Notes under the pieces: model-generated
What the model saw: only the letters and a program-made list of their open reading frames with translations
What the model was told of the DNA's origin: nothing
Databases searched by the model: none
Translations under genes and position numbers: made by a program
Shown here: one piece after another, positions 26,483 through 62,859 of the stretch
Numbering within the stretch: position 1 is the first letter of the stretch
Layout of the letters: each line of letters begins with the position of its first letter
From: Polyangia bacterium
GTDB taxonomy: Bacteria > Myxococcota_A > Polyangia > Palsa-1104 > SHYY01
Length of the DNA stretch: 64,000 nucleotides
Direction: 5' to 3'
Assembly (NCBI GenBank): GCA_036263495.1
Contig: DATAGU010000153.1
Span: 4,611 to 68,610 of the forward strand

Positions 26483-26950
26483 CTATCCCTTTTCCATGGG
26501 GTCCCCGTGTTCGGCGCCGGGATAGATGTATACGACGGACAATTCTTCGTCCCGACGCGCGCCGGTCTTTGCGTACAGCGCCTGTGCCGCCAGGTTCCCT
26601 GCGCCCGTGAGGACGAACGCTTCATGCAGCCCTTCGGCCGCGACGATCTCACGCACATGCGTCATCAGACGCATGCCGACGCCGCATCGACGTGCATCGG
26701 CTGCCACATCCACCTCATACACGAACAATTGGGCCGGACGCTGGTCGATCCGTTCCAGGCGGTAGGCCCAGACAAAGCCGAGCAACCGTCCCGCCGATTC
26801 GGCGACGAGCAGATAGTGCGCGGGGTTCGCGAGCAGCTGGGCCGCGTACTCGATCGAGACCTGCGCCGATTTGTGAGCGGCGGCCACGGCCACGAGCAAG
26901 CGCTCGTCGCCAGGCGCCAGTCTGCGAGTGCAAACTTGCATGAGCTTCAT
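26483..26950 (-). CDS. GNAT family N-acetyltransferase
   Basis: RRCGVGMRLMTHV (Q/RxxGxG/A acetyl-CoA motif). Confidence 0.7.
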   Translation of the reverse strand: MKLMQVCTRRLAPGDERLLVAVAAAHKSAQVSIEYAAQLLANPAHYLLVAESAGRLLGFVWAYRLERIDQRPAQLFVYEVDVAADARRCGVGMRLMTHVREIVAAEGLHEAFVLTGAGNLAAQALYAKTGARRDEELSVVYIYPGAEHGDPMEKG

Positions 26951-27065
26951 GTGCCACGATCCGCGTCTTCAGAGAAGCGCGGCTCCGCCCACGTCGCCAG
27001 GCCATGCCCCACCGCCATGCGATGGTCAGGAGAGTGAGAGTCTAACGAGCTGGCAGAAAGGCATG
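26951..27065 (-). pseudogene. Duplicated toxin leader plus the first ~18 toxin codons, fused directly upstream of the GNAT gene
   Basis: 27006-27060 matches 29062-29120 and 61932-61975 (..catgcgatggtcaggagagYgagagtct..). It encodes MAWRRGRSRASLKTRIVAH (compare MALRRWRTLSCIRQHSL of the intact toxin), then shifts frame into GNAT. Confidence 0.5.
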
Positions 27066-27094
27066 TTTCGCGGGAGCGGGCGTGAGTGCGGGCG

Positions 27095-27673
27095 TTACTC
27101 GCCGACCGGCTTGAAGTAGGCGCCGACCAGGCCCTTGTCTTCGACCAGCGCCTTGAACTCGGCGGAGACCAGGTCGTGAAGCAGGCACTGCTTGCATTTG
27201 AAGAGATGGTGGCCGTCGGTGCTGCCGGGTTTGAAAGCATACTCTTCGACGATCATGATTTCCCCATCGGAATACCGCCGGACCTTCGAGCGCTCTTCAT
27301 CTAGGCAATCGACGATGTCGAGTATGTTCACAACCTGGAAGCGCCCAGGCCCATCGTGGGCGAGTGGTAAGAGTTCAATCCCGTCGCCGATAAGGGGTGC
27401 CAAGACCTCTGCCGCGCGATTTGAGAGAGCCAGACCATGACCCATGAGACCGATGAAGTCGACGGGCTTGCCGCGATTCTGCCGCACTGTGGCCCGCGTC
27501 CACTCCATGGGCACGGGTTCCCACCAGTCTGCACAGCGTACGCCCTCTGACAGCCTCCCGAAGATTGGAGACCATCCGCCAGGCCGGGATCCTAGAACGG
27601 TCAGCAGGTCATCGTGCTTATCTGGATTTGGATCCAGACGAAAAATCTTCGGCGGTGGAGAACTTTGGATCAT
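27095..27673 (-). CDS. Putative immunity protein for the adjacent AHH-nuclease toxin
   Basis: The ATG overlaps the toxin's TGA as ATGA (27670-27673). 192 aa, no signal peptide. Homologous 3' fragments recur at 59398-59652. Confidence 0.5.
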   Translation of the reverse strand: MIQSSPPPKIFRLDPNPDKHDDLLTVLGSRPGGWSPIFGRLSEGVRCADWWEPVPMEWTRATVRQNRGKPVDFIGLMGHGLALSNRAAEVLAPLIGDGIELLPLAHDGPGRFQVVNILDIVDCLDEERSKVRRYSDGEIMIVEEYAFKPGSTDGHHLFKCKQCLLHDLVSAEFKALVEDKGLVGAYFKPVGE

Positions 27674-29061
27674 GGAGGAAATGCTCCGTTCTGTATCTGT
27701 TGTGCAATGTCCCGCAACGCCTCGATCATCTTGGCACGCTGACCACTCCTCTCGGCCCGCAGGAGGCGAAAAAAAACTTCTCGAATCGCCGCCTTCATAT
27801 GGAGCCCGCGCCCCACATGCTGGCTCTGTGTCAGCACGACACCATTGTCCACGCTGTTGACGTCGATGCCGAACCGATCGAGGATTTCGCGTGCATCCTC
27901 CGCCTCGCGGTGCGTGCTTGGGACGATATGGTGTACTGCCTCGCTGGAGGCCAATTTCCTCCCGAGTTTCTTCTCGAGTGCTGCGCGTAGTCGGTCGGCA
28001 TTGGCGGATGTATCCCACTGCTGCGTCGAGGTGAAGCCGGGCGGCCGGCTACCACCGCCGCCAACCGAGTTGGTGCCGCGCAATCCCTGGGCGCGTGCCG
28101 TCTGCGCCGGCGTGAGTTCGCGTAGCGCGACATGAAGCATGGCCGCCGCCTGACCCATCCGGCGAGCTTCCACGAGCGCCCAGACCTCGACTTCGCTGAG
28201 CGCCAACGTCCTCGCCGTGGCTCCCGTGCCGATGACGAGCGCCAACGGGCCGCCGCCCGCACTGGTGGCGGTGACGGCCCAATACGCTTGCCCCATGCCC
28301 GGCCCTTGGGATGCCCCACGCCGCAGGAAGTCCACCAGCCGCCCGAGCCCCGACAGGTTCCCGAGTTCCTTGAGGAGCTCCGGGCCATGACCCACCAGCC
28401 GGGCGGCCGTCCACGCGGTACTGACCAGCGCCGCGGCCTGGATGCCGGCGTTGCCGGTCGCGATGCCCTTGATGGTGTCGACGAGGCTCTCCGTCTTGCG
28501 CCAGGCATCGGCGTGCAGCCTCCGCGCCTCGTCCGGCGCACGGTCCATCCAGAAGGGATCCTGTCTGAGTTCGCGGAAGCCGCGCCAGGTGAGGTCGAGC
28601 GCGCCGGTGTCGTAGTCGTTGCTGAGGTTGATTTTGACCGGCGGTGAACCGGCGCCAGGGCTGCGCTCGCACAAGAGGACCGAGAGGTTGAAGGAGGCGA
28701 AATCTCGGCCGTAGGCGATGGCCCGCCGGAGAGCGGCCTGGGCCTCGGGTCCAGCATCGGGCACATCGCCGAGCAGGGAGGCCAGATACTCAAGATGCTG
28801 ATCGAGGGTCTCGTAGTGGGTCTTCCAGGAACCAGTGAAGTAGGGCGCGACCTCCTGAAGCATGAGCGACATGCCGAGGAGATCCCGCCCGAGGTCTTCC
28901 AAGGGCGGTGGGACGCTGCCATCCGAGAAGGCGAGACTGGGCGGCGGCTCGGCCAAGGCGGGCCTGCTCGCAGCAAGGCATCCGAGGACCATGAGCCAGC
29001 GCCAGCCAACAAGAGAATGCTGGCGTATGCAGGAAAGGGTTCGCCAACGTCGCAAGGCCAT
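27670..29061 (-). CDS. Secreted polymorphic-toxin-like protein with a C-terminal AHH (HNH/EndoVII-fold) nuclease domain
   Basis: Sec signal MALRRWRTLSCIRQHSLVGWRWLMVLGCLAASRPALA|EPP, and a C-terminal AHHIVPSTHREAEDAREILDRFGIDVNSVDNGVVLTQSQHVGRGLHMKA motif. Confidence 0.65.
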   Translation of the reverse strand: MALRRWRTLSCIRQHSLVGWRWLMVLGCLAASRPALAEPPPSLAFSDGSVPPPLEDLGRDLLGMSLMLQEVAPYFTGSWKTHYETLDQHLEYLASLLGDVPDAGPEAQAALRRAIAYGRDFASFNLSVLLCERSPGAGSPPVKINLSNDYDTGALDLTWRGFRELRQDPFWMDRAPDEARRLHADAWRKTESLVDTIKGIATGNAGIQAAALVSTAWTAARLVGHGPELLKELGNLSGLGRLVDFLRRGASQGPGMGQAYWAVTATSAGGGPLALVIGTGATARTLALSEVEVWALVEARRMGQAAAMLHVALRELTPAQTARAQGLRGTNSVGGGGSRPPGFTSTQQWDTSANADRLRAALEKKLGRKLASSEAVHHIVPSTHREAEDAREILDRFGIDVNSVDNGVVLTQSQHVGRGLHMKAAIREVFFRLLRAERSGQRAKMIEALRDIAQQIQNGAFPP

Positions 29062-29135
29062 GCTTCACCTCGATGCGATGATCGGGAGAGCGAGAGTCTA
29101 GCGAGCTGGCACCAAGGCATGTTTCGCGGTGCAGC
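29062..29135 (-). promoter_or_regulatory. Conserved 5' leader of the toxin gene (three copies in the window)
   Basis: The ~75 nt upstream of the toxin ATG are near-identical to 27006-27065 and 61932-61985. Confidence 0.4.
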
Positions 29136-29171: not shown

Positions 29172-29470
29172 ATGGTGGATCGACCATGTCGACATGATCG
29201 CAGGATATGTCGACATGGTGGATCGACCATGTCGACATGGTCGCGGGATATGTCGACATGGTCACGGGATATGTCGACATGGTCGGGGGATATGTCGACA
29301 TGGTCGGGGGATATGTCGACATAGTCGCGGGATATGTCGACATAGTCGCGGGATATGTCGACATAGTCGCGGGATATGTCGACATGGTCGCGGGATATGT
29401 CGACATGGTGGGTCGACTATGTCGACATGGTCGCGGGATATGTCGACATGGTGGATCAACCATGTTCACA
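29172..29470. repeat. 21-bp tandem repeat array (~14 units, consensus ATGTCGACATGGTCGCGGGAT) containing the palindrome ATGTCGACAT
   Basis: Direct reading shows a near-perfect 21-nt periodicity. All six frames are open (heptapeptide artefact ORFs MSTYPAT and YVDMVAG). Confidence 0.9.
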
Positions 29471-47264: not shown

Positions 47265-47603
47265 AGAGACGTGGCCACGGGGCCATTCGACATCGCCATG
47301 AGGCCATTCGACGTGGCCACGGGGCCATTCGACGTCGCCATGAGGCCATTCGACGTGGCCACGGGGCCATTCGACGTCGCCAAGAGGCCATTCGACATCG
47401 CCAAGGAGCCATTCGACATCGCCACAGAGCCATTCGACATCGCCACGGGGCCATTCGACGTCGCCATGAGGCCATTCGACGTGGCCACGGGGCCATTCGA
47501 CATCGCCAAGAGGCCATTCGACATCGCCAAGGAGCCATTCGACGTCGCCACAGGGCCATTCGACATCGCCAAGAGGCCATTCGACGTCGCTACCAGGCCG
47601 GAC
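47265..47603. repeat. 21-bp tandem repeat array (~16 units, consensus GCCATTCGACRTSGCCAYGRG), related to the 29.2-kb array
   Basis: Perfect 21-nt periodicity, GACGTC/TCGAC cores, 13/21 positional identity with the array A unit. It is intergenic between NUDIX (stop 47632) and rhomboid (start 47190). All frames are open, giving artefact ORFs PFDVATG and DVEWPLG. Confidence 0.9.
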
Positions 47604-57469: not shown

Positions 57470-59191
57470 TCAGGTGCGCGAGTTGCGCTCCCGCAGATGA
57501 CGCTCGACCTCGCTCCGCAAGATGATCTCGGCCAGCTCGGGGACGACTTCCCACGCGATCTGCTCGATGACCTCGCGGCTCAGCTTGGCGAGCGCCTCGT
57601 ACTCGGGCCCGCGCGCGGCGATGCGGTTCACCGCGTCGGCCACCACGCCCGACACGGCACCTGCGGCCGGCATGACGGGCGTCCCCATCGGGGTCGCCGA
57701 GCGCGGGCGCGGCGGGGCGCTCGGCGCGTTGGGGATCAGGGAAGGCCGCGGCATCTGCGGTACGGCGCCGGGGATCCCCCGCACGGAATGCGGACCCGAG
57801 GGCGATACCGGCACGGGCGCCGAGGGCGCCGCCGACATCGGTGCGGCGGACGCCGCCGACATCGGTGCGACGGGGGCCGCCGCCGTGGGCGCAGGGGCCG
57901 CCGCCATGGGCGGCAGGGTCCGCGACGGGCCGCGCCCCGCGGGCTCGACCGCCGGGGCAGGGGGCGATGGCGCATGCGGCGCTTCCTCGACCTCGGGTCC
58001 CGGCGTCGCCATGCTGGGCGCGCTGACCGGAGCGCTCGGCGTCGCAGGCGCCGCGGCCGCCGGGGCCTCGGCCGAACGCGCCGTCGCCGCGACGGCGGCG
58101 GGCGTGGGCTGCCGGGTCGGAGGCGCAGGCACGGCCGGAGCCGCGTGGCCCTGCGTGCCATCCATGCTGTCGCCCACCCGCGGGCGGCGCAGCGCAGGAC
58201 CCGGCGGCGCGGCCGGAGGCGGCGGCGCGGCCGGAGGCTCGGCCGCAGGAGGCGGTGCGGTGCCCATCATGGGAGGCGGGATCGGCGCTACCACCGAGAC
58301 CTCCCGCGGGGTGATCGTGTTCGAAGGCGAGGCGACCGGCGGCGCGTGCTCGGCCGGTGGCGCGGGCTCACGCTTGGGCAGCGGCGCGACCGCCGAGACA
58401 CCGGTGCGGCCGGGCACGGCCGGCGGTTTGACCGCGGCCGGAGTCGGTGCCGGGGGCGTCGGCGTTCCCCCGACCGGCACACCCGCCGGCGTCATGGCCG
58501 GCATCCCGACGATGGTCTTGGCCGCACCGCGCGGGATGACCGGTCGCGAGGACTCGGGCCGGACCGGGGCCGGCACTCCCGGAGGCTTGGCGGCCGGGGC
58601 CGGCGGGGCCTCCGCGGGGGCGCGAGGGGCCTCCTTGGCAGGAGCGTCGGCCGCCTTGGCGGCCATGGCCGGCGGCGCATCGTGCGCCGGGGCCGCGGCA
58701 GGGGCAGCCGCAGGGGCCGGTGGTGCCGCCGGGGCCGCGGGTTTGAGCACGGCCGGCGAGGCGGCCGGTGTCGGCGTGGGCCGCGGCGGCGCGGCCGCCG
58801 GTCGTGCCGGTGCCGGTGCCCCCGAGCGCTGGGCGATGGCCTGGGCCACGCGATCGATGATGCCCTGGGTATCGAAGGGCTTGGGCACACCCCCATCGGC
58901 GCCCACGCTCTGACCCTTGACCTCATCATAAGGAGTGAAGTTGTTGGTCAGGAGGAGCACTGGGACGTCCTTCAGGCCCGCCTCCCGCAGCGCAGCGCAC
59001 ACCTCGTAGCCGTTCTTGCCCGGGAGCCCGGCGTCGATCAGCACCACATCCGGTCGCTCTTGCCGTGCCCGTGCCACCGCCTCATCGCCGCTCGTCACGG
59101 CGTTCACGACGTAGTCCTCGTGGGCGAACGTGATCTGCACCATCTTTGCGATGGTTGCGCTATCGTCCGCCAACAGGATCTGCTTGGGCAT
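57470..59191 (-). CDS. Response regulator with an N-terminal receiver domain, a ~330-aa Pro/Ala-rich linker and a conserved acidic C-terminal helical domain (RomR-like architecture)
   Basis: MPKQILLADDSATIAKMV...VVLIDAGLPGKNGYEV...LLLTNNF is a CheY-like REC domain. The longer listed ORF start at 59266 is less likely. Confidence 0.7.
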   Translation of the reverse strand: MPKQILLADDSATIAKMVQITFAHEDYVVNAVTSGDEAVARARQERPDVVLIDAGLPGKNGYEVCAALREAGLKDVPVLLLTNNFTPYDEVKGQSVGADGGVPKPFDTQGIIDRVAQAIAQRSGAPAPARPAAAPPRPTPTPAASPAVLKPAAPAAPPAPAAAPAAAPAHDAPPAMAAKAADAPAKEAPRAPAEAPPAPAAKPPGVPAPVRPESSRPVIPRGAAKTIVGMPAMTPAGVPVGGTPTPPAPTPAAVKPPAVPGRTGVSAVAPLPKREPAPPAEHAPPVASPSNTITPREVSVVAPIPPPMMGTAPPPAAEPPAAPPPPAAPPGPALRRPRVGDSMDGTQGHAAPAVPAPPTRQPTPAAVAATARSAEAPAAAAPATPSAPVSAPSMATPGPEVEEAPHAPSPPAPAVEPAGRGPSRTLPPMAAAPAPTAAAPVAPMSAASAAPMSAAPSAPVPVSPSGPHSVRGIPGAVPQMPRPSLIPNAPSAPPRPRSATPMGTPVMPAAGAVSGVVADAVNRIAARGPEYEALAKLSREVIEQIAWEVVPELAEIILRSEVERHLRERNSRT

Positions 59192-59464
59192 CGCTTGTCG
59201 TCCTCCGGCCTGGGCCTGCGGAGAGGGGTGGGTGATCAGCCTCGAATCTCGCCCATTCCATAACACGCAGGTGTGTGGCGGTTCAAGAAAACCGTTGTAA
59301 ATTCAGGGGGGCTCCGCCCCTCCGCCCCGGCGAGCGCGAGCCTCCGCAGCGCCCGCGCGCTCCCACTCCCTTCGTATCATTGTTATGGTGTTATGGTTCG
59401 CGGGGAGGGCGTGAGAGCGGGCGTCCATCGCCGACCGACTGGAAGTAGGCGCCGACCCCCGCCA

Positions 59465-59652
59465 TCGACCGGTGCTCCGACGGTGACATTTCGAGCGTCA
59501 AGAAGTACGCCTTCAAACCCGGCAGCACTGGCGGCCGCCACCTCTTCAAGTGCAAGCCGTGGGGGCTTCACGACCTGGTCTCCGCCGAGTTCAAGGCGCG
59601 GGTAGAAGAAAACGGCCTGATCGGCGCCTACTTCACCCCCGTCGGCGAGTAG
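59465..59652 (+). pseudogene. 3' fragment of an immunity gene homologous to 27095..27673 (orphan immunity remnant)
   Basis: Encodes ...SDGDISSVKKYAFKPGSTGGRHLFKCKPWGLHDLVSAEFKARVEENGLIGAYFTPVGE*, compared with ...SDGEIMIVEEYAFKPGSTDGHHLFKCKQCLLHDLVSAEFKALVEDKGLVGAYFKPVGE*. A second, minus-strand 3' stub (GVGAYFQSVG..., ~59398-59445) abuts it tail-to-tail. Confidence 0.5.
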
Positions 59653-59820
59653 CGTCCGCCGGACGGCGGCGTGGCGGGTGGCGCAGGGGTCGGAACTCCT
59701 GGCGGAGATGGGCAGGCCGTCGGGGCTCGGCCGCGAGCCCCGACGGTTTCCGGACGAAGAGGGGATCGACATCGGCTCGGCGTCGGCCGAGATGGTGGCG
59801 ACTTCAGGGCCGTCCTGCGA

Positions 59821-60171
59821 TTACGAAATCGAGAACTCGACTTCGATGAGGCTCATCTTTCCCGGGATATTGGTGCTCCACTGGCCGGTAAACCGTCCGC
59901 CGTAGCTGGCTGCGATCGTGGGACCGATCTTCTGCGCCTCGTCGTTATTCCAGAGGGGGCCGGCGGGCACCATGCATTTGAACTTCGTGGGACCCGTATT
60001 GGGATCGGCAGGCAACACCACGTCCACAGTGCTCATGACACTGGGAACGACGGTGCGCCATTGGCCGTTGAACGTGCCGCCGTGAGCGGCCGCCACGGCC
60101 TTGCCCTTGACTTGGGCATCTTCGTTGTTCCAGATCGGACCGGCGGGAATACTGATGGTGTAGGTCGACAT
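59821..60171 (-). CDS. Small tandem-repeat (2 x ~55 aa) lectin-like protein
   Basis: AAGGAGAGAG precedes ATG 60171. The two repeats PAGPIWNNEDAQ...GGTFNGQWRTVVP and PAGPLWNNDEAQ...GGRFTGQWSTNIP are clearly internal duplicates. No signal peptide. Confidence 0.5.
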   Translation of the reverse strand: MSTYTISIPAGPIWNNEDAQVKGKAVAAAHGGTFNGQWRTVVPSVMSTVDVVLPADPNTGPTKFKCMVPAGPLWNNDEAQKIGPTIAASYGGRFTGQWSTNIPGKMSLIEVEFSIS

Positions 60172-60556
60172 GGGGCTCTCTCCTTGTTGGGTGGGCCGCC
60201 TTCTATGAAGACGCGCCGGTGGCGAATTCCAACGGTCGCCCTTCAATAACGGTGGACCCCTACGGCCAACGCTCAGCGCAATCGACGCGATCGGCGCCAT
60301 CTTCGTCCGTACCGACCGAATCGTCGGACCCAGCATTGGTGACGACTGAATCCGAGCGCTCTCATTTCTGGAGAGACATCCATCTCGTCACCTATGCAGG
60401 AAGATCTGAAAGAAATCGCCACCACGCGGGCCAGGGCGTAGCCGGTGTGGACTCCCGCCGCCGGCATCGTGCGAAGAGTCGCGCATAAAGCGAGCCCTCC
60501 CTGTCTCTAGCCCTTGAGGGCTTGTTCCGCCTCTCTCAACACAGGAGAACCCCACC

Positions 60557-61474
60557 ATGACGATCACAATGAACGGTGCCTACTTCAATAATTTGGATCA
60601 AAAGTCTGGCCTCAAGACCGCGCTGGCCCAGATCCAGGGGAGCGTGACGACCGACTACATCCTGTTCAGCCTCAACGTGGCGAGCGGCACCAGCCCCGAC
60701 ATCAACTTCGGGCTCACCGGGCCTGTCCTGGCCACCAACGGACAGGTCGCGCCGGCGACCGGCGACTTGCTGTCGAGCGTCGTGAGCGCGGGCGTCGCCA
60801 AGGGCCACTGCCAGTGGGTCTGGCTCTCCATCGGCGGCTGGGGCTCCAACGCGTTCACGAACATCCAGAACATCCTCACCGCCGGCGGCGCGCCTCGGTC
60901 GACGCTGATCGCCAACTTCGGTGCCATCGTCCAAGCGCTCGGCAGCATCAAAGGCGTCGGGAGCATCGGCTTCGACATGGATTACGAGGAGCAGGGCAGC
61001 GACCTGGCCTCTCTCGTGGCGAGCGTGACCATCGCCCTGAATGACGCGTTCAAATGCCCGATCACCTTCTGTCCATATCAGCAGCTCCCCGTGCCGGATC
61101 CCACCCGCTCCCCGTGGATCCAGGCTCTCCAGCAGGTCTATTCCCAGCAGGGGACCCAGCCCGTCGTCGGCTTCAACCTGCAGACCTATGCCGGTGGTGC
61201 CCTAAACGACCCGAGGGCATGGACGGCGGCCATCGCGAATGCGTCGAACACCGGCGTCTCCGACCCTGCGGCCTTCGTCTGGCCGATCGTCTCTTGTGAC
61301 ACCAGCGCCTCGCCGGTCAGTCCGCCCAGCCAGGTGATTCAGAAGATGAAGGAGTGGGGCTCGCAGGGGGCCTCCCTCTGGGCCACGGCGTCCCTGCCCT
61401 ACGAGGGCAACCCTCTGGCGGCCTACGGCAACGCGATCACCGCCGGCATCACCCCCCCACCGACTCGTCGCTGA
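60557..61474 (+). CDS. GH18-like (chitinase-like / narbonin-like) protein without a signal peptide
   Basis: WLSIGGWG (SIGGW motif) and GFDMDYEE (DxDxE-like catalytic motif region). Confidence 0.55.
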   Translation: MTITMNGAYFNNLDQKSGLKTALAQIQGSVTTDYILFSLNVASGTSPDINFGLTGPVLATNGQVAPATGDLLSSVVSAGVAKGHCQWVWLSIGGWGSNAFTNIQNILTAGGAPRSTLIANFGAIVQALGSIKGVGSIGFDMDYEEQGSDLASLVASVTIALNDAFKCPITFCPYQQLPVPDPTRSPWIQALQQVYSQQGTQPVVGFNLQTYAGGALNDPRAWTAAIANASNTGVSDPAAFVWPIVSCDTSASPVSPPSQVIQKMKEWGSQGASLWATASLPYEGNPLAAYGNAITAGITPPPTRR

Positions 61475-61499: not shown

Positions 61500-61931
61500 C
61501 GAGACGCCGTAGGCTCTCCTATCTTCTCCCAGGCGAACGCCCGAGTCGGGGTTCGTGAGCGCCTCGATCGGACCCGGGCGCCAAGGAGCGTCGGCCTCTA
61601 CGAGGAGCGGCAGCACCGGGATGCTGGCAGCACGGGCGGCATCCACCTCGAAAGGGATCCTGTCTGAGTTCGCGGAAACCACGCCAGGCGAGATCCAGCG
61701 CGCCAGTGCCGTGATCGTTGCTGATGTTCGGTTTGATCAGCGGCGAGCCGGCGCCCGGGCTGCGCTCGCACAAGAGGACCGAGAGGTTGAAGGAGGCGAG
61801 CCGGACGGCGGCTCGGCCAGGGCGGGCATGCTCGCAGCAAGGCATCTAAGGATCACGATCACGAGCCAGCGCCAGCCGAGAGGAGAACCGCCGCGTGCGC
61901 GGGAAAGGGTCCGCCAACGTCGCCAGGCCAT
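61500..61931 (-). pseudogene. Frameshifted and internally deleted N-terminal remnant of the AHH-toxin gene family, with its conserved leader
   Basis: ORF 61737..61931 gives MAWRRWRTLSRARGGSPLGWRWLVIVILRCLAASMPALAEPP (toxin signal peptide). The shifted frame 61519..61845 contains ASFNLSVLLCERSPGAGSPLIKPNISNDHGTGALDLAWRGFRELRQDPF, which matches toxin residues ~125-175. About 230 bp are missing relative to the 28.7-28.9 kb region. Confidence 0.6.
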
Positions 61932-61977
61932 GCTTCACCTCCATGCGATGGTCAGGAGAGCGAGAGTCTTCTCTGGA

Positions 61978-62859
61978 TCAATCCTGGCTGTCGTCCAGGG
62001 GGCGTCCCAGCGCCTGCGGTGCGGCGGCGGCCCGCGGGCGCAGGATGAGGGCGATGAGGGTGGCGATGTAGGGGATGGCCTGCACCGTGCCGGGCGCCAG
62101 AAGATGAAGCCCTCCGGCCGAGGACTGGAGCTGCAGCTCGATGGCCTCGGCGCCGGCAAACAGGAGGCAGCCCAGGGCGGCTCCGAACGGCCGCCAGCCG
62201 CCGAGGATCATGGCGGCCAGCGCCACGTAGCCTCGCCCGGCCGACATGCCGGCCACGAACTGGTGCTGATCAAAGGCCAGCCACACCCCGCCCAGGCCGG
62301 CCAGCGCGCCGGAGGCGAGCACGCCTTGCCAGCGCAGGGGCGCCACCGCGATCCCTTGCGCGCGGGCGGCCTCGGGGTGCTCGCCCGCGGTGCGCAGGCG
62401 CAGGCCGAGGCGCGTGTGATGGAGGAGCCCATGAACCAGGAGGAGCGCGACCAGGGCCGAGGCGCCGAGCGGGAGGCTCGACCCGAGCGCCGGGATGCGG
62501 GGCGAGTTCGACGCGGAGTGATAGATGAGCTTGAGGAAGAACCGCGTGAGCCCCGAGGCGAGCAGGGTGACGGCCACGCCGCAGACGATCTGATCGGCGC
62601 GCAGCCGGATCACCGCCATTCCATAGATCGCGGCCAACGCCACGCCGGCCGCCATCCCGCCGGCGATGCCAAAGAGCGCGCTCGTGCTCTCCCGCGCGAT
62701 CACCGCGCCCACGAACGCGCCGACCAGGAGCAGGCCTTCGAGCGCGATGTTGATGACGCCGGACCGCTCGCACAGGAGGCCCCCCAGGGCCGCGAGGAGG
62801 TAGGGCACGGAGATGCGCAGCGTCTGCACGAGCAGACCGGCGAGGAAGGCGACGCTCAT
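61978..62859 (-). CDS. ABC transporter permease (BPD_transp_2 / nucleoside-sugar-BMP type)
   Basis: 8-10 TM helices; the stop overlaps the upstream permease's start by 4 nt. Confidence 0.8.
   Translation of the reverse strand: MSVAFLAGLLVQTLRISVPYLLAALGGLLCERSGVINIALEGLLLVGAFVGAVIARESTSALFGIAGGMAAGVALAAIYGMAVIRLRADQIVCGVAVTLLASGLTRFFLKLIYHSASNSPRIPALGSSLPLGASALVALLLVHGLLHHTRLGLRLRTAGEHPEAARAQGIAVAPLRWQGVLASGALAGLGGVWLAFDQHQFVAGMSAGRGYVALAAMILGGWRPFGAALGCLLFAGAEAIELQLQSSAGGLHLLAPGTVQAIPYIATLIALILRPRAAAAPQALGRPLDDSQD

Follow-up and report, generated by a model that had tools for sequence, protein, structure and literature searches.

The two oppositely oriented pieces at positions 59393-59652 of the window (the whole stretch of 64,000 nt that was analysed) are very probably non-functional pseudogene fragments originating from separate copies of an Imm11 immunity gene. 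The plus-strand fragment and the minus-strand stub keep 32% and 6% of the gene, respectively, and both are without start codons. Their positions are compiled in Table 1 together with the reference cassette, the neighbouring features and the paralogous loci considered here.

Table 1. Features of the window and state of the paralogous AHH/Imm11 loci (positions are those of the window, except for the paralogous loci).
Feature	Position	Strand	Description
Toxin leader and first codons, remnant downstream of reference immunity gene	26986-27073	-	86% direct repeat with 29042-29129
Reference Imm11 immunity gene, intact	27095-27673	-	192 aa; PF07791 match
AHH-nuclease toxin gene, intact	27670-29061	-	463 aa, AHH domain at residues 372-456; PF14412 match
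Response regulator gene (flanking core gene)	57470-59191	-	Long Pro/Ala-rich region; adjoins permease gene in relatives
Imm11 3' stub	59393-59457	-	About 11 codons (59427-59457), lost stop codon and 3' flank
Imm11 gene 3' fragment	59464-59652	+	Equivalent of residues 131-192 and stop codon; without start codon
AHH-toxin mid relic	59662-59745	+	About residues 214-245 of 463; joined to the Imm11 fragment no more than a few nt past its stop codon
GC-rich hairpin, near-perfect	59715-59748	.	15-16 bp stem, 4-nt loop; -37 kcal/mol, z = -2.7
MVL-type mannan-binding lectin gene, intact	59821-60171	-	116 aa, two-repeat; PF12151, E = 2e-16
305-aa ORF, intact	60557-61474	+	Weak GH18-like motifs LSIGGWG and GFDMDYEE; below Pfam threshold
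AHH-toxin relic	61651-61800	-	Residues 121-170, 84% identity, E = 5e-22; out of frame with the next piece
AHH-toxin relic	61812-61969	-	Start codon and residues 1-38, preceded by a leader of 38 nt; begins 8 nt past the stop codon of the permease gene
ABC-transporter permease gene (flanking core gene)	61978-62859	-	Adjoins regulator gene in relatives
Paralogous locus L085			Toxin full length; immunity gene intact
Paralogous locus L083			Toxin cut by contig end, otherwise intact; immunity gene intact
Paralogous locus L167	2213-3713		Toxin 5'-truncated (residues 192-463), preceded by Imm11 mid-fragment (residues 109-129); immunity gene intact
Paralogous locus L168	281-1343		Toxin shattered into three pieces; immunity gene intact
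Paralogous locus L169	748-2230		Toxin with internal deletion, residues 144-287; immunity gene intact

The pieces were compared with the intact cassette at 27-29 kb of the same window. The product of 27095-27673 matches the Pfam family Imm11/DUF1629 (PF07791) with 36.5 bits against a cut-off of 22.1 (E = 4e-9), a domain carried by 43 of its 44 database homologs, and the product of the adjoining toxin gene matches PF14412 (AHH, E = 1e-9). The stop codon of the toxin gene and the start of the Imm11 gene overlap by 4 nt, and Imm11 is located directly 3' of an AHH toxin gene both in the reference cassette and in the paralogs L083, L085, L167 and L169. By definition, Imm11 proteins are the immunity counterparts of the nucleases Tox-AHH, Tox-HNH and Tox-SHH (PMC3482391). 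The immunity assignment of the 27095-27673 product, put forward in the first-pass annotation, is thus sound as a prediction from the Pfam match, the toxin adjacency and the pairing described in the literature; the debris at 59 kb, taken there as independent support for immunity function, does not provide it, since the assignment stands on the Pfam match and the adjacency of the toxin gene.

The public calls for these genes, HEX2570718 (137 aa) and HEX2570719 (428 aa), start too late, family alignments favouring 192 aa and 463 aa, the longer forms of which homologs cover 96-100%. An exact look-up of the 192-aa reference immunity protein returned no record, the start codon of the public call lying further downstream. 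Matches to the N-terminal 371 aa of the toxin were confined to Polyangia AHH proteins, and no Pfam or NCBIfam model matched this part; NCBIfam scans of the toxin, the immunity protein, the plus-strand fragment, the lectin and the 305-aa ORF gave no matches either. In the polymorphic toxin systems described by Zhang et al. (2012) C-terminal toxins are varied, whereas here the toxin relatives nearly all carry AHH (13 of the 14 detected, the exception being one short protein for which no Pfam domain is recorded) and the N-terminus is 73-84% conserved among paralogs. Intact toxin copies show ...VLGC... after a charged N-region, with Arg seven residues before Cys, as well as an alternative ALA/E signal-peptidase-I site. 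AHH domains are present on some Myxococcus SitA lipoprotein toxins (PMC8546572); for the toxin described here an LGC lipobox is possible as read from the sequence, albeit atypical, and an affiliation with the SitA family or with a known delivery class is unproven.

The intact cassette is bracketed by an 88-nt direct repeat (86%, 26986-27073 and 29042-29129), the downstream copy of which consists of a toxin leader and a start-codon remnant and begins 22 nt past the stop codon of the immunity gene. We take this remnant leader as the trace of a tandem cassette since lost. It is directly followed by a GNAT acetyltransferase gene (26483-26950), which may now use the leader. Two 21-nt tandem arrays with differing units were also observed in the window. 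One, at 29186-29452 (unit ATGTCGACATGGTCGCGGGAT, 12.6 copies, 88% matches), lies upstream of the intact AHH toxin gene, some 60 nt from its conserved leader, aligns with its own reverse complement at 73-83% and contains several open frames, on both strands; the other, at 47268-47590 (unit GACGTCGCCACGGGGCCATTC, 15.4 copies, 85% matches), was first seen in tblastn noise, and its translations repeat WPRGHVEWPHGD.

A tblastn search of the window with the 192-aa reference protein returned, besides the gene itself, a sole significant match, 59464-59649(+), corresponding to residues 131-192 with 71.0% identity over 62 aa (E = 1.25e-24). The alignment runs down to the C-terminal ends, ...GAYFTPVGE in the fragment and ...GAYFKPVGE in the reference product, each followed by the stop codon, so that the similarity of about 70% over the last ~60 residues and the common GAYF(K/T)PVGE terminus noticed earlier hold on formal alignment. 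At the DNA level, the fragment is 83% identical to the 27095-27673 gene over 182-190 nt (blastn, E = 5e-50 to 1.5e-51), with homology extending 7 nt beyond the stop codon, to 59659; its translation alone scores 23.7 bits against Pfam Imm11 (gathering score 22.1) at profile positions 141-193 of 194. The nearest family members of the fragment, P0018 and P0006, are 80-82% identical to it versus 71% for the copy within the window, and the fragment hence derives from a distinct paralog, being approximately equidistant (82-86% DNA identity) from all paralogs sampled.

The sequence 59449-59652(+) translates to APTPAIDRCSDGDISSVKKYAFKPGSTGGRHLFKCKPWGLHDLVSAEFKARVEENGLIGAYFTPVGE followed by a stop codon, leaving 67 codons open in the frame, and is immediately preceded by an in-frame TAG at 59446-59448. 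No ORF of at least 20 aa initiated by ATG, GTG or TTG and ending at 59652 was found in this frame, a reading of the sequence revealed no obvious ribosome-binding site, and tblastn detected no homology to residues 1-130 of the Imm11 protein anywhere near the fragment. Among the 44 database homologs of the protein, 40 are 180-200 aa long (about 192 aa); the fragment aligns to just the last ~62 residues of full-length homologs, whereas all 40 full-length relatives keep the ~130 N-terminal residues, many positions of which are invariant. The fragment is consequently not part of a longer gene overlooked in the first reading.

The minus-strand stub is not significant when searched at the protein level alone (10 aa, E = 4.2, tblastn). 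At the DNA level, 59457-59428 match nucleotides 546-575 of the gene at 28 of 30 positions (E = 4e-7), and the stub together with its 3' flank, 59393-59457(-), aligns with 27063-27128 at 86% over 66 nt (E = 1e-15). It represents, accordingly, a second copy of the last ~34 nt of the gene along with ~30-32 nt of 3' flank. The segment 59393-59423 is the cassette 3' flank, common to the reference cassette, L167 and L168 and not shared by L083 or L085; the codons preceding it read GVGAYFQSVGD, and GGA at 59424-59426 replaces the former stop codon. The stub of ~15 codons reported in the first-pass annotation is therefore real as DNA, although shorter than thought (~11 codons), the rest being 3' flank. 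Chance similarity in GC-rich sequence, for which the insignificant protein match of the stub might be cited, has practically no probability left in view of the DNA alignments of the stub with flank (1e-15) and of the fragment (1e-51), a Pfam match above threshold and the recurrence of the same pieces in five further paralogous loci. Because there is no start codon, a stop codon lies upstream in frame, the stop of the stub is lost and N-terminal homology is missing, neither piece is a gene, and the designation as orphan immunity genes, which presupposes an intact ORF, has to be given up in favour of pseudogene fragments.

The mutual arrangement of the pieces also had to be revised. They had been described as lying tail-to-tail, that is, convergent; however, they are joined at their truncated 5' sides (junction 59457/59464) with the 3' ends pointing outward and are thus divergent. 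As the locus holds two distinct immunity 3' ends, it must have received material from at least two copies of the cassette. The presence of these two ends also speaks against a single simple inversion of one cassette. A shufflon-like invertible switch operating via the two inverted 3' ends was considered and rejected, as in neither orientation would there be an intact 5' gene part to join and the arms are only 74-82% alike.

The two 3' ends form an imperfect inverted repeat of 39 nt (59417-59455 and 59621-59659, 74% complementary), and the pieces are found 200-460 bp upstream of the start codon of the response-regulator gene. Together with the open frame of 67 codons, from which a 62-residue mini-immunity protein binding an AHH toxin could be made if a non-canonical start were used, these features might speak for an element that is still functional, either as such a protein or through regulation of the response-regulator gene by the repeat. 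We regard this as very improbable: apart from the missing in-frame ATG, GTG or TTG and ribosome-binding site, and the N-terminal part retained in every full-length relative, the arms of the repeat are 165 nt apart and 74-82% complementary, scans of 59.1-62.1 kb for promoter and terminator consensus sequences and against Rfam placed nothing on the Imm11 pieces, and relatives regulate the same gene without this sequence. The sole Rfam row in that interval was a sub-threshold microRNA, which was taken as chance.

The 62 codons of the plus-strand fragment contain neither frameshifts nor stops, and at columns conserved at 90% or more the fragment departs at one only, H to R. Its differences from paralogs are concentrated at third codon positions, dN/dS (Nei-Gojobori) being 0.17-0.44 against intact paralogs and 0.23-0.34 for intact pairs. 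Most of this divergence appears to have accrued while the sequence belonged to a working gene, the truncation being recent relative to the divergence of the paralogs; the coding-like look of the fragment follows from divergence that mostly predates the truncation, and the pattern of purifying selection does not require present function. One may alternatively consider that the fragments are kept as a silent reservoir, serving as donors for gene conversion or recombination with intact imm11 or ahh paralogs and thereby diversifying immunity C-termini or swapping cassettes, as orphan CdiA-CT/Rhs-CT modules can. The undecayed state of the fragment and its codon-position bias resembling functional genes would suit such a role, as would the many paralogs at 70-86% identity in apparently the same genome and the conserved cassette leader and 3' flank that could serve as homology arms. 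Recent truncation, however, explains the signature of purifying selection equally well, no mosaic or conversion tract was seen in the fragment with its near-equal distance from all sampled paralogs, and the adjoining toxin relics are frameshifted and internally deleted, as expected of junk. We therefore hold a reservoir to be improbable and retain the interpretation of both pieces as relics of cassette turnover.

This interpretation, already proposed in the first-pass annotation, gains from the surroundings of the pieces, that is, from further relics in the same island and the absence of that island in relatives, in addition to the leader remnant at 27 kb and the graded decay of paralogs. Starting from the regulator side, the order of the locus is response regulator (-), ~200 bp of upstream sequence, stub (-), Imm11 fragment and toxin mid relic (+), lectin (-), 305-aa ORF (+), toxin residues 121-170 (-), toxin residues 1-38 with leader (-) and permease (-). 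A scan with the receiver domain revealed two related metagenome contigs, L087 and L088, with regulators 74% and 71% identical, in which the order is permease2, permease1, regulator and the spacers amount to 147 and 104 bp versus 2786 bp here; no lectin, GH18-like, toxin or immunity homology was found on either contig. A query of GTDB representative genomes with the permease returned nothing closer than 54% identity and gave no comparison at species or genus level. Only ~110 nt of native spacer next to the regulator gene aligns with the spacers of L087 and L088, which puts the left boundary of the island at some position from about 59306 to 59393. GC content is 58-69% in the island versus 70-84% in the flanking core genes. 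The short, empty spacers in relatives and this contrast in GC show the interval from ~59.3/59.39 to 61.97 kb to be, as judged from gene order and composition, a lineage-specific insertion of ~2.6 kb between the permease and regulator genes. Both edges of the island are on the minus strand, with a toxin leader and 5' coding end on the permease side and an immunity 3' end with its flank, the stub, on the regulator side. The stub, first ascribed to yet another family member, does come from a separate copy; rather than being an unrelated additional one, however, it more plausibly marks the 3' edge of the founding cassette of the island.

The response regulator itself consists of an N-terminal receiver domain, ~400 aa of Pro/Ala-rich low complexity, in which local GC reaches 84%, and a short C-terminal segment that is conserved.

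Paralogs at 82-86% identity in the same sample can confuse short-read assemblers, and a chimeric MAG contig in which paralogous cassettes were mis-joined at their conserved 3' ends was hence considered. An independent JGI assembly (L001, 3326 bp) covers 57724-61049 at 99.8%, from the response regulator through the GH18-like gene, and spans every junction at 59393-59806 with zero differences; most of its differences from the window fall in the Pro/Ala-rich region of the response regulator. A Logan assembly from another run (L002) matches 59574-61455 at 100%, and the permease-side junction at 61970-61977 is covered by the window's own assembly alone. Moreover, a divergence of 14-18% separates the pieces from each of the paralogs sampled, and they are thus not mis-placed copies of them. 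An assembly artefact is accordingly still less probable than a functional element, and the pieces are treated further as genuine debris.

The additional toxin pieces of the island were located by searching the window against itself. The mid relic at 59662-59745(+) matches the same toxin position in three paralogs with 71-74% DNA identity (E down to 5e-7). An 18-nt direct repeat (59658-59675 and 61800-61817) was examined as a junction signature and dismissed as too short and GC-rich to interpret. The lectin and the 305-aa ORF make up a carbohydrate-related pair of lower GC (58-68%), the match of the ORF to Pfam Glyco_hydro_18 being sub-threshold (E = 0.12, 12.4 bits against a cut-off of 29.6). 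About 75 nt past the lectin stop codon a hairpin is found, the left arm of which is toxin-derived; the right arm, in which a 5-nt insertion is involved, has no counterpart in the intact toxin paralogs. This hairpin, built from debris, may act as a terminator for the lectin gene, and it perhaps originated by a template-switch mutation.

Intact paralogous immunity genes, whose existence elsewhere the first reading had left to be checked, are present in L083, L085, L167, L168 and L169, loci that come from the same metagenome. At least six Imm11 paralogs have accessions in one run, HEX2570192-HEX2573750, three of them numbered consecutively with AHH proteins; this numbering suggests that the six belong to the same Polyangia MAG. 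The AHH/Imm11 cassette family seems, on this evidence, to have multiplied in this uncultured Polyangia genome. The paralogous loci range from a full-length toxin to a shattered one (Table 1), and in L167 an Imm11 mid-fragment is fused upstream of the truncated toxin, resembling the junction in the window. The locus at 59.4-62.0 kb would constitute the end stage of this decay series. The leader and the 3' flank of the cassettes are conserved across loci, and this conservation of cassette ends, together with the relics, would indicate recombination.

The following course of events may be envisaged. The first step would have been the insertion, at the permease-regulator site, of a toxin-immunity cassette on the minus strand or of several such cassettes in tandem; later, deletions together with one or more inversions or oppositely oriented insertions would have rearranged the interior of this insert. 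The plus-strand composite of an immunity 3' part and a toxin middle may have resulted from a deletion within a tandem array, in which an immunity gene is followed by the next toxin, and would now be inverted relative to the edges. What remains would be this composite, the two intact unrelated genes (MVL lectin and GH18-like ORF) and the two 5' toxin pieces. The fragments would record the loss of the toxin, the retention of immunity and finally the loss of immunity as well. The sequence of these steps is a reconstruction, in which the lectin gene and the GH18-like gene may have preceded the cassettes or followed them. As an unlikely, though more far-reaching, extension, the AHH/Imm11 cassette might be a discrete mobile unit with conserved ends that inserts between housekeeping genes and becomes a landing pad for further cassettes and cargo. 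The ends of such a unit would be the leader of ~40-130 nt before the toxin start codon and the ~30 nt of 3' flank after the immunity stop; the stub and the toxin leader at the island edges would then be the ends of the original cassette, hollowed out while the lectin and GH18-like cargo was gained by recombination.

Debris of this kind as such is already well known, AHH/Imm11 having been studied in Myxococcus. The AHH/Imm11 pairs of M. xanthus are experimentally studied kin-discrimination systems, DK1622 possessing 14 ahh and 20 imm11 genes, and neutralisation of toxin by Imm11 has been shown for Myxococcus members only (PMC12077181). The same order, PF14412 followed by PF07791, characterises the myxobacterial pairs (M. 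xanthus T6SS-linked and SitA-type, with MXAN_0049 as the Imm11 prototype), and the M. xanthus ahh-imm11 loci and those described here are alike in the overlapping immunity gene directly 3' of the toxin, the many paralogs and the myxobacterial lineage. They differ in that the pieces at 59 kb are not genes, in the host, an uncultured Polyangia MAG and not a member of Cystobacterineae, and in the toxin N-terminus of ~370 aa, which has no detectable relative outside Polyangia AHH proteins. Imm11 is also among the families forming homogeneous polyimmunity loci (Zhang et al. 2012, PMC3482391). In such loci and in orphan immunity genes (PMC3482391), immunity sequence likewise outlives the cognate toxin; L168 and L169, with eroded toxin and intact Imm11, fit the orphan category, whereas the pieces at 59393-59652 are dead relics, one step beyond it.

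A further parallel is offered by CDI and Rhs systems. There, orphan CdiA-CT/CdiI and Rhs-CT/RhsI modules are tandem remnants generated via recombination in conserved sequence and are taken as footprints of cassette replacement; CDI/Rhs orphans usually keep the variable toxin C-terminus and an intact immunity gene beside an intact main locus. In contrast to them, the remnants here are 5' and middle parts of the toxin and 3' ends of immunity genes, in both orientations and with no intact toxin at the locus.

Taken alone, this clear example of toxin-immunity cassette decay matters little, and the debris agrees with the annotation of the locus at 27-29 kb as AHH/Imm11. Combined with the paralogs, it would complete a within-genome series from the intact pair through eroded toxin with intact immunity to total debris, and would extend a family important for kin discrimination in Myxococcus to another myxobacterial class.
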